NCBI GenBank assembly: GCA_964640155.1
Contig: CAZXEQ010000002.1
Coordinates: 469,886 to 501,885, forward strand
Direction: 5' to 3'
Source of the DNA: an uncultured bacterium
GTDB taxonomy: Bacteria > Auribacterota > JACPWU01
DNA: 32,000 nucleotides
Part shown: in pieces, positions 4,085 to 4,573 of the stretch
Position numbering within the stretch: the first letter of the stretch is position 1
Layout: every line of letters begins with the position of its first letter
Translations under genes and position numbers: made by a program
Notes under the pieces: generated by a model
What the model was told of the DNA's origin: nothing
The model's input: only the letters and a program-made list of their open reading frames with translations
Databases searched by the model: none

Positions 4085-4160
4085 TGTTGTGAGGAATAGA
4101 GTTTTATCCTGTCGATAGACATATCATACATTTGAATTGTCCAATAGAGTGTTTATCAAG

Positions 4161-4555
4161 AAAGGGTCCTGCCCAACGAATCATGATTTACGATCTTCTC
4201 TCGTACGCATTCCAGCGACCGTAAAGAGATAATATTTAGTTTTCGTTTGTTAAAGCAGGAGATGAGTTTCGAAGAGGGGTGTCTTTTCCTTCGTTGCTTA
4301 CACTCGCGTGCGATCGCTCATCATTAGGATTCGTTGGTCACCCTCATTTATTTTTATGAATTGTTCAACGGAGTGTGAAGACCATTGGAAATCGAGTGAG
4401 CGCGGACCCCGATTGATCGGGGGAACGAGATTTCCGTTGAGTTAGTTTCCCTCGCAGGGGGAAACTAACGTGTCTGAACGCTCTGTTGGACGATTCATCC
4501 ATACGAGACAGTCTAAGACGCTAGAGTGAGTGATGAAAGTTGTGCAGGACCCTTT
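4161..4555 (+). ncRNA. Candidate large structured RNA (unclassified), plus strand, antisense in orientation to both neighbouring genes
   Basis: There is no ORF of 60 aa or more in 4033-4573 on either strand, and the region is visibly GC-richer than its flanks.

Nested helices read directly from the sequence:
- 4161-4172/4544-4555: 12 bp, extendable by 2.
- 4173-4182/4328-4337: 10 bp, perfect.
- 4183-4187/4320-4324.
- 4191-4195/4312-4316.
- 4203-4208/4306-4311.
- 4214-4219/4293-4298.
- 4358-4376/4478-4496: 19 bp.

The non-Watson-Crick positions in these helices are G-U on the plus strand and would be A-C on the minus strand. The closing helix is followed by TTTTTCTAT on the plus strand. Confidence 0.45.
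4358..4496 (+). repeat. Three-way-junction module, copy 1 (embedded in the 4161-4555 element)
   Basis: Structure read from the sequence:
- P1: 4358-4376/4478-4496.
- Tandem G-A/A-G at 4377-4378/4476-4477.
- 4379-4382/4472-4475.
- P2: 4387-4393/4429-4435.
- CCCCGA...TCGGGG hairpin at 4407-4422.
- P3 hairpin: 4441-4451/4459-4469.

Shares conserved sequence blocks with 8980-9116. Confidence 0.55.
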
Positions 4556-4573
4556 TTCTATGAACAATGGTCA

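Follow-up and report, generated by a model that had tools for sequence, protein, structure and literature searches.

A 32,000-nt stretch of DNA from an uncultured bacterium (hereafter the window; assembly GCA_964640155.1, contig CAZXEQ010000002.1, positions 469,886 to 501,885) carries an intergenic element, which we call E1, between a plsC-like acyltransferase gene and the thiG gene of a thiG-thiH-thiS operon. We found that E1 is a nest of inverted repeats built from separately closed hairpin units, i.e., not a single unit, and that the stronger of its two inner hairpins shares a branched core with a second element of the window, E2. Since the core of the E2 ortholog in a related genome is inverted between unchanged arms, we favor an orientation-independent element acting at the DNA level over an RNA gene of fixed strand. 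Our preferred reading, to which we assign a probability of roughly 0.5, is that E1 represents lineage-specific (Omnitrophota-like) nested intergenic hairpin repeats and, at most, an orientation-independent, stable hairpin block. The candidate roles of such a block would be, at most, those of a terminator, an insulator, or an mRNA 3' stabilizer between plsC and the thiG promoter.

Results

E1 consists of nested, separately closed hairpins

A first-pass annotation, made from the sequence alone, had described E1 as one discrete, ~395-nt structured RNA read from the plus strand. Folding of positions 4134-4572 yielded -161.6 kcal/mol on the plus strand (z -7.35 against shuffled controls) and -138.3 kcal/mol on the minus strand (z -6.73); E1 therefore beats its shuffles, as the annotation had anticipated, and does so on both strands. 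Most of the helices that had been read by eye were recovered in the minimum free energy (MFE) fold, including the closing helix (as 4159-4172/4544-4557), the 10-bp helix 4173-4182/4328-4337 and the two helices that extend it, 4183-87/4320-24 and 4191-95/4312-16, and the long 3' helix that leads into a three-way junction, which the MFE fold gives as 21 bp (4356-4376/4478-4498). The sequence likewise has G-U at the four positions given, the tandem G-A pairs, and a T-run at 4553-4557. Two inner helices of the 5' rod, 4203-08/4306-11 and 4214-19/4293-98, were absent from both the MFE and the centroid folds.

The outermost inverted repeat (I1, 28 nt, 82% complementary) encloses a "loop" of ~370 nt that holds two hairpins, a weak 5' hairpin (R, the rod of the first-pass annotation) and a strong 3' hairpin (S, 4356-4498). 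Its stem, GGGTCCTGC/GCAGGACCC, is preceded by an A-rich and followed by a T-rich tract whichever strand is read; on the minus strand, the partner arm is followed by TTTCTTGAT. From this layout, the outermost stem looks like a bidirectional terminator at the plsC end. It was not called as an intrinsic terminator by a scan permitting loops of 3-8 nt, its own loop being ~370 nt. R and S were each folded alone. R, the interior of which is weakly structured apart from the terminal arms, reached -47.6 kcal/mol on the plus strand (z -2.35) and -46.7 kcal/mol on the minus strand (z -4.1), i.e., it displayed no strand preference. S reached -76.0 kcal/mol on the plus strand (z -9.7), where the MFE structure accounts for 28% of the ensemble, and -51.3 kcal/mol on the minus strand (z -5.9); with DNA energy parameters, z was -7.6 and -3.7, respectively. 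Since R alone is unbiased and S alone is biased, nearly all of the difference in energy between the two strands of E1 can be traced to S. The proposal of one discrete plus-strand RNA was not supported, in that the units are separate and only S is both strong and strand-biased.

A 20-nt motif occurs in three copies in E1, two of them direct (4133-4152 and 4357-4376) and one inverted (4478-4497). The first of these (motif a) belongs to direct-repeat family D1 and is 85% identical to 4357-4376. Both direct copies, a and b, can pair fully with the inverted copy c, with duplex energies of -30.1 kcal/mol for a:c versus -28.4 kcal/mol for b:c. The coordinates of all these features are listed in Table 1.

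A branched core is shared by S and E2

An intergenic scan of the window for excess structure produced a single additional standout, at 8971-9120 (GC content 0.47, z about -6 on both strands). This is the location of E2, in which a stem of 19-20 bp encloses a core of ~105 nt (fold -65.9 kcal/mol, z -7.2), situated between the convergent genes for a DUF7910 protein (5575-8970, plus strand) and a chlorite-dismutase-like protein (9121-9876, minus strand). The cores of S and E2 are homologous, having in common a three-way junction and the blocks CCCCGAT..ATCGGGG and GGGGGAA..CGTGTC. Searched as patterns, these blocks matched the window only at S and E2, with no match expected by chance. In their outer arms, S (ATGAATTGTTCAACGGAGTGT) and E2 (AGAAGAAGGATTTATTTTT) show no relation, and the alignment is limited to the inner core. 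When the two cores were aligned with that of the E2 ortholog in GCA_041906865.1, the consensus fold comprised 33 pairs with 97.9% of cells paired, and 9 of the 33 pairs were compensatory (i.e., both sides changed); in slid controls of the same alignment, pairing collapsed to 33-53%. A covariance model made from the three cores found only these copies in ~113 kb, comprising the window, a further 9 kb of its genome, and the loci taken from relatives. Two of the copies lie in the ~41 kb covered from this genome and the third in 12 kb from GCA_041906865.1. A search of R with the core model, filters off, revealed no degenerate copy.

Inspection by eye for a target-site duplication showed GCTA near both ends of E2; the tetranucleotide does not directly abut the left arm, the ortholog (L032) lacks it, and nothing comparable flanks E1. 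A hammerhead ribozyme was considered for E2 (UUGAUGAG-stem-CGAA) and rejected, as no hammerhead model matched at E<=10, position 3 (by eye) is U and not C, positions 15.1/16.1 (also by eye) would be U and G, and the motif is missing in E1.

The E2 core is reversed in a related genome

The thiG protein of the genome GCA_041906865.1 falls into the same 90% cluster as that of the window, and gene order is conserved. Its E2 ortholog (L032:5214-5365) has the same outer arms as E2 with the core reverse-complemented between them: the E2 core is 85.7% identical to the reverse complement of its counterpart versus 47.7% in direct alignment, and the arms and flanks align directly at ~80% identity. Divergence within the core is uneven, the right ~45 nt being 100% identical and the left half having 11 differences in 58 columns. 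Judging from these alignments, the reversal is best described as a DNA inversion, and it follows that the core is not bound to one direction of transcription. Both orientations were seen between genomes only, in one orthologous pair; a look-up by the exact chlorite-dismutase-like protein for a second orientation at E2 returned the same assembly only, identical to the window.

A way to retain an RNA function in the face of this inversion would be to regard the core as a cis-acting motif (e.g., protein-binding or nuclease-blocking) that is active in any transcript carrying it in sense, with the outer stem merely presenting it. E2 would then serve the DUF7910 mRNA here and the chlorite-dismutase-like mRNA in the relative, its position between convergent genes placing either orientation inside a 3' untranslated region (UTR). 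The conserved junction and loops, the compensatory changes in the stems, and the invariance of the right core half between orthologs all agree with such a motif. However, the sense strand of E1 has neither an upstream gene nor a promoter, which would leave that copy silent or serving an unannotated transcript. Moreover, only three copies are known, and strict core-pattern scans of JGI metagenomes and IMG/VR gave nothing genuine. We therefore consider this explanation quite unlikely.

Strand bias and the case for a plus-strand RNA

The principal alternative is that E1 encodes a discrete, novel, ~400-nt structured RNA on the plus strand, antisense to plsC and thiG and ending at the closing helix and T-run, in which the three-way junction is a reusable RNA module found also in the 3' UTR of DUF7910 (E2). 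Several features speak for it. The plus strand folds 23 kcal/mol better than the minus strand, S has the pronounced plus-strand z-score and ensemble share given above, and no Rfam family matches. In addition, the mismatches of the 21-bp stem are all G-U on the plus strand, the tandem G-A loops keep to one strand in all copies of the core, and a T-run follows the closing stem, as it also does in a non-homologous element of GCA_041906865.1. Nevertheless, a scan of 3900-4800 found no sigma-70-like promoter on the plus strand to go with that T-run, and the 5' half of E1 on this strand is no better than chance. The closest relative lacks E1 and has a different element instead, the homologous core is inverted relative to the flanking genes in L032, and the G+T skew of the plus strand by itself predicts a G.T bias. 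On balance, a plus-strand RNA gene appears unlikely to us.

We examined the base composition of the window. GC skew was above zero in every 4-kb bin and AT skew was mostly negative, i.e., the plus strand is rich in G+T whatever the direction of the genes. Since GC skew is positive regardless of gene orientation, the whole window apparently lies on one replication arm. Mismatches beside inverted-repeat seeds outside E1 and E2 were G.T in 325 cases versus A.C in 223 on the plus strand (a fraction of 0.59), and a majority of G.T over A.C is to be expected there because of the window-wide G+T richness of that strand. In the b/c stem, 4/4 mismatches are G-U on the plus strand; with motif a included, the figure is 5/5 variable sites, all of which are transitions that preserve G-U pairing on this strand. 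We regard these counts as suggestive but not decisive. The first-pass annotation was correct as to the G-U positions on the plus strand, but the strand argument it drew from them is weakened by the G+T excess of that strand across the window.

The thiG-upstream locus differs among relatives

When the plsC-thiG gap was compared with that of GCA_041906865.1 (L022) by BLAST, 95% identity was found over 3990-4096, a segment that includes both the start and the promoter of thiG, and none from there until plsC. Similarity thus ends at ~4096, beside the thiG promoter. The gap in GCA_041906865.1 is 299 nt long and holds an unrelated GC-rich element (L022:2702-2940) with a bounding inverted repeat of 18-19 bp and z of -7.3 on both strands; on the strand that corresponds to plus in the window, an internal GC-rich stem has a T6 run after it. 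The first-pass annotation had named failure of relatives to preserve its helices as evidence against the proposed RNA. E1 as a whole is missing from this close relative, the gap of which holds a hairpin element unrelated to it, and the helices are therefore not preserved there.

Other relatives differ again. In a genome with 86% ThiG identity, the thiG promoter is preceded by a near-perfect hairpin of 165 nt (L039:51-215, z -12.2); in a JGI relative, 166 nt are enclosed by a perfect 14-bp inverted repeat that abuts the thiG -35 box (L026:2764-2957); and in a further relative small divergent open reading frames (ORFs) stand upstream of thiG in place of a hairpin element. When the elements upstream of thiG in five genomes were compared all against all by short BLAST, only chance 11-mers were shared. 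None of the elements in the relatives contains the core, the L022 element having been checked with model filters off. On this comparison, the region just upstream of the thiG promoter resembles a hotspot for differing hairpin elements. Two relatives (L025:~2740-2860 and L026:2567-2689) also have ORFs of ~40 aa that are divergent from thiG and have the peptide MAKPV in common; after each of these ORFs come a strong terminator and, beyond it, an ORF of 71-81 aa.

A simpler hairpin occurs elsewhere in the same genome, between convergent genes (L035:6512-6576), and consists of two perfectly matching 14-bp arms in inverted orientation, separated by 37 nt and followed by a T-rich tail. It is plausible that plain long-stem hairpins of this kind are "empty" precursors of the core-holding hairpins.

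Contig ends inside E1

Logan contigs, chosen by proteins identical to the plsC-like or ThiG protein of the window, end inside E1 in three samples, at 4192 (L003), 4222 (L004), and 4470 (L001/L002, two samples). One Logan assembly that is broken in E1 crosses E2 unbroken. The ends point to a repeat or polymorphism inside E1, and they could result from a repeat elsewhere, a structural polymorphism, or an effect of the assembler. Inversion at each arm pair, a deletion between short direct repeats, and a repeat spanning 4163-4499 were each tried, and none fits all of the ends.

Such breaks might be expected of a phase-variable, invertible switch (inverton- or shufflon-like) in which arms a, b, and c and the arms of E2 are recombination sites that alter transcription near the thiG promoter, since ends at 4470 (twice), 4192, and 4222 could reflect mixed orientations. 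Segments flanked by inverted repeats, one documented change of orientation, and a 20-nt arm present three times, twice direct and once inverted, would all be consistent with a switch. Against this, the Logan ends differ from the positions that k-mer reasoning predicts for inversion at any arm pair, and the same assembly passes E2 unbroken. The arms of E1 and E2 are unrelated, which makes a single site-specific recombinase unlikely, and the window contains no recombinase gene. Furthermore, no promoter-like site lies inside either invertible core (S or E2), and the thiG promoter is outside every inverted repeat. A phase switch is, in our estimation, improbable.

Database searches

The failure of the first-pass annotation to place E1 in any known RNA family was borne out by Rfam, which recognized no family in E1 at the gathering threshold or at E<=10; at the latter cut-off, E1, E2, and the L022 element drew chance-level matches only (10-18 bits). 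The families covered include RNase P, tmRNA, SRP, 6S, the thiamine pyrophosphate (TPP) and other riboswitches, HEARO, OLE, ROOL, GOLLD, raiA, and ribozymes. ARAGORN found no tRNA or tmRNA in E1. The only gathering-level match in the window is a truncated tRNA at its end (31947-32000, minus strand; Rfam tRNA, 35.3 bits). BLASTN of E1 against phage and plasmid collections and a comparison of its concatenated six-frame translations with a protein database both returned no match. Genome and metagenome scans were made with exact patterns only. A degenerate version of the 20-nt arm motif (not the core) gave 15 single chance matches in unrelated taxa among representative genomes, a collection that the source genome is outside of; a 23-base core pattern gave two chance matches in coding DNA in JGI metagenomes; and pattern scans of IMG/VR gave no match.

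The thiG promoter and neighboring genes

As the first-pass annotation held, E1 is not the thiG leader, given that the thiG promoter (Table 1) leaves a leader of only ~20 nt. No TPP aptamer was found between this promoter and the start codon with the Rfam models, on either strand. The operon thus combines a near-consensus promoter and a ~20-nt leader with no TPP riboswitch, which is unusual among thiazole-synthesis operons. The gap (4033-4573) was also found to be free of ORFs of at least 60 aa, as had been reported, the longest being 45 aa. Its GC content is indeed above that of the flanks (0.43-0.49 inside versus ~0.38-0.40), the rise being only modest.

Table 1. Features of E1, E2, and the thiG side of the window
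Feature	Position	Strand	Description
Motif a	4133-4152	+	Third copy of the 20-nt arm, TGAATTGTCCAATAGAGTGT; direct repeat of b, inverted repeat of c
Outermost inverted repeat, left arm	4150-4177		Holds the 5' strand of the closing helix, 4159-4172, AGAAAGGGTCCTGC
Unit R	4173-4337		Inverted repeat I2; terminal arms 4173-4187 and 4320-4337
Arm b	4356-4376		5' strand of the 21-bp outer stem of S; MFE helix
Core of S	4377-4477	+	Three-way junction; family model R1, 97.2 bits, E 7e-22
Arm c	4478-4498		3' strand of the outer stem of S; four G-U pairs with b on the plus strand
Outermost inverted repeat, right arm	4539-4566		GCAGGACCC, then TTTTTCT on the plus strand
E2	8977-9119	+	Outer arms 8977-8995 and 9101-9119; core 8996-9100; covariance model 124 bits
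thiH	2135-3247	-	Gene of the thiG-thiH-thiS operon
thiG	3250-4032	-	Gene of the thiG-thiH-thiS operon
thiG promoter	4056-4084	-	TTGACA-17-TATATT, 11/12 matches; outside E1
plsC-like acyltransferase	4574-5350	-	On the other side of the E1 gap from thiG

The nearest named homologs of the plsC-like acyltransferase are annotated as Candidatus Omnitrophica/Omnitrophota. No transposase, reverse transcriptase, or Cas gene is present among the genes of the window, the rest of which is housekeeping. Several further features were recorded. The protein encoded at 750-1391 has a below-cut-off match to the Rcas_1661 family of thioredoxin-like (seleno)lipoproteins. A 23-nt imperfect palindrome at 27586-27634 (ATGAATCATCAAATATGATCTAT / ATATAGCAATTTTGATGATTCAT), ~75 nt upstream of a gene starting at 27710, may be an operator. 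About 2 kb before the start of the window, an intergenic region of 340 nt (L035:7485-7824) that precedes a cold-shock-domain gene folds better than its shuffles (z about -4 on both strands) and is probably a long csp 5' UTR.

Discussion

Model for E1 and points that weigh against it

If E1 is a nest of DNA-level hairpin repeats, its parts could be understood as follows. The outermost, terminator-like stem at the plsC end would hold R and S in its loop, and S would be a copy-specific 21-bp stem placed around the core of a small dispersed family. Recombination or template switching between the flanking arms may allow the core that they enclose to flip. A stable, multi-hairpin block in the 3' region of plsC would be able to stop or stabilize transcripts and to shield the thiG promoter from read-through. 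The units themselves probably arose by insertion into, or by loop expansion of, ordinary long-stem terminator hairpins.

A number of observations weigh against this interpretation. The cores have asymmetric loops, several 5'-GA/GA-3' internal loops confined to one strand, and nine compensatory pairs, all of which have been kept and would be expected of a functional single-stranded RNA or DNA. The invariance of the right half of the core between orthologs, compared with ~80% identity in the flanks, suggests a sequence-specific constraint. All of the b/c mismatches and all five sites that vary among a, b, and c are G-U on the plus strand, which the base rate of 0.59 explains incompletely, and a run of T5-6 follows a GC-rich closing stem on the plus or equivalent strand in the window and in L022 alike. 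Since only three copies of the core were found, the term "repeat family" rests on few members, and the data showed neither an insertion mechanism nor a target duplication or an empty site. The compensatory changes, together with G-A loops that keep to one strand and a right core half that does not vary, leave some probability to a functional RNA or single-stranded DNA module; taken together, the plus-strand small RNA and the 3' UTR motif are less likely than our preferred reading but constitute a serious possibility.

It is also conceivable, though we consider it doubtful, that the ~100-nt core (4377-4477 and 8996-9100) is an undescribed functional module of Omnitrophota-like bacteria, either a mobile unit or a strand-specific RNA or single-stranded DNA. 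As a mobile unit, the core might home into the loops of terminator hairpins, where it would acquire or use copy-specific 20-bp arms. As a strand-specific molecule, it might have a sequence-specific partner, and DNA inversion might switch it between two convergent transcripts.

Comparison with known intergenic elements

Intergenic repeats of the general kind to which we tentatively assign E1 and E2 are well known, e.g., miniature inverted-repeat transposable elements (MITEs), ERIC, and bcr1 (PMC3184786), as well as the GC clusters of yeast mitochondria (PMC4478555). One parallel is with bcr1 of the Bacillus cereus group, a dispersed, non-coding intergenic repeat of ~150 bp with a branched or cruciform-like fold that is kept by compensatory changes and a distribution that varies between close strains (PMC3184786). 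However, bcr1 is conserved over its full length, is flanked by 5-bp direct repeats, and occurs in many copies (PMC3184786), whereas here only the ~100-nt core is conserved, the ~20-bp stems are copy-specific, no flanking duplication was seen, and there are two copies in 41 kb. MITE, ERIC, Correia, RUP, and Chunjie elements are, like those described here, non-coding sequences of 100-400 bp at the 3' ends of genes that form very stable hairpins and are variably present, and some such palindromic elements are co-transcribed and affect mRNA stability or termination (PMC3184786). MITEs have terminal inverted repeats common to their copies, in addition to target-site duplications (PMC3184786). In contrast, the terminal arms of S and E2 are unrelated, and neither a convincing duplication nor a partner transposase was found. 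Since the terminal arms are not common to the copies, we rejected the label of MITE for E1 and E2.

Invertons resemble the present elements in being short segments bounded by inverted repeats and found in both orientations (PMC11602134; PMC11892184; bioRxiv 10.1101/2023.03.11.532203), but here there is no internal promoter and no invertase nearby, the arms are not common to the loci, and the orientations differ only between species. The GC clusters of yeast mitochondria are likewise GC-rich palindromic units in AT-rich spacers that vary between close relatives and may be nested or clustered (PMC4478555). They belong, however, to another domain of life, are much shorter, and fall into defined families with target preferences, and we claim no relation in sequence.

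Taken across the copies, the layout that sets this family apart is, as far as the alignments tell, the combination of copy-specific arms with conservation of the inner core only. Small inversions associated with hairpins are reportedly known from the non-coding DNA of plastids, where the spacer is said to flip between close relatives while the arms stay fixed (as attributed to Kelchner and Wendel in 1996). E2 and its ortholog show this pattern, with a flipped spacer and the arms in place. The plastid inversions are said to be usually a few to tens of bases long and to have no conserved internal structure, whereas the segment inverted here is a conserved, 100-nt three-way junction.

Significance

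These results carry a caution for genome scanning, i.e., that a strong z-score, strand-biased G-U pairs, and compensatory changes can all stem from nested inverted repeats on a G+T-rich strand as well as from an RNA gene. They also document, in a barely studied candidate phylum, a family of hairpins with a branched core, a clean inversion of that core, and a thiG-upstream locus that varies from one relative to the next. Should the core prove to be mobile or to be bound by a specific partner, it would represent a new kind of small element or RNA motif; otherwise, it would be one further family of palindromic repeats.

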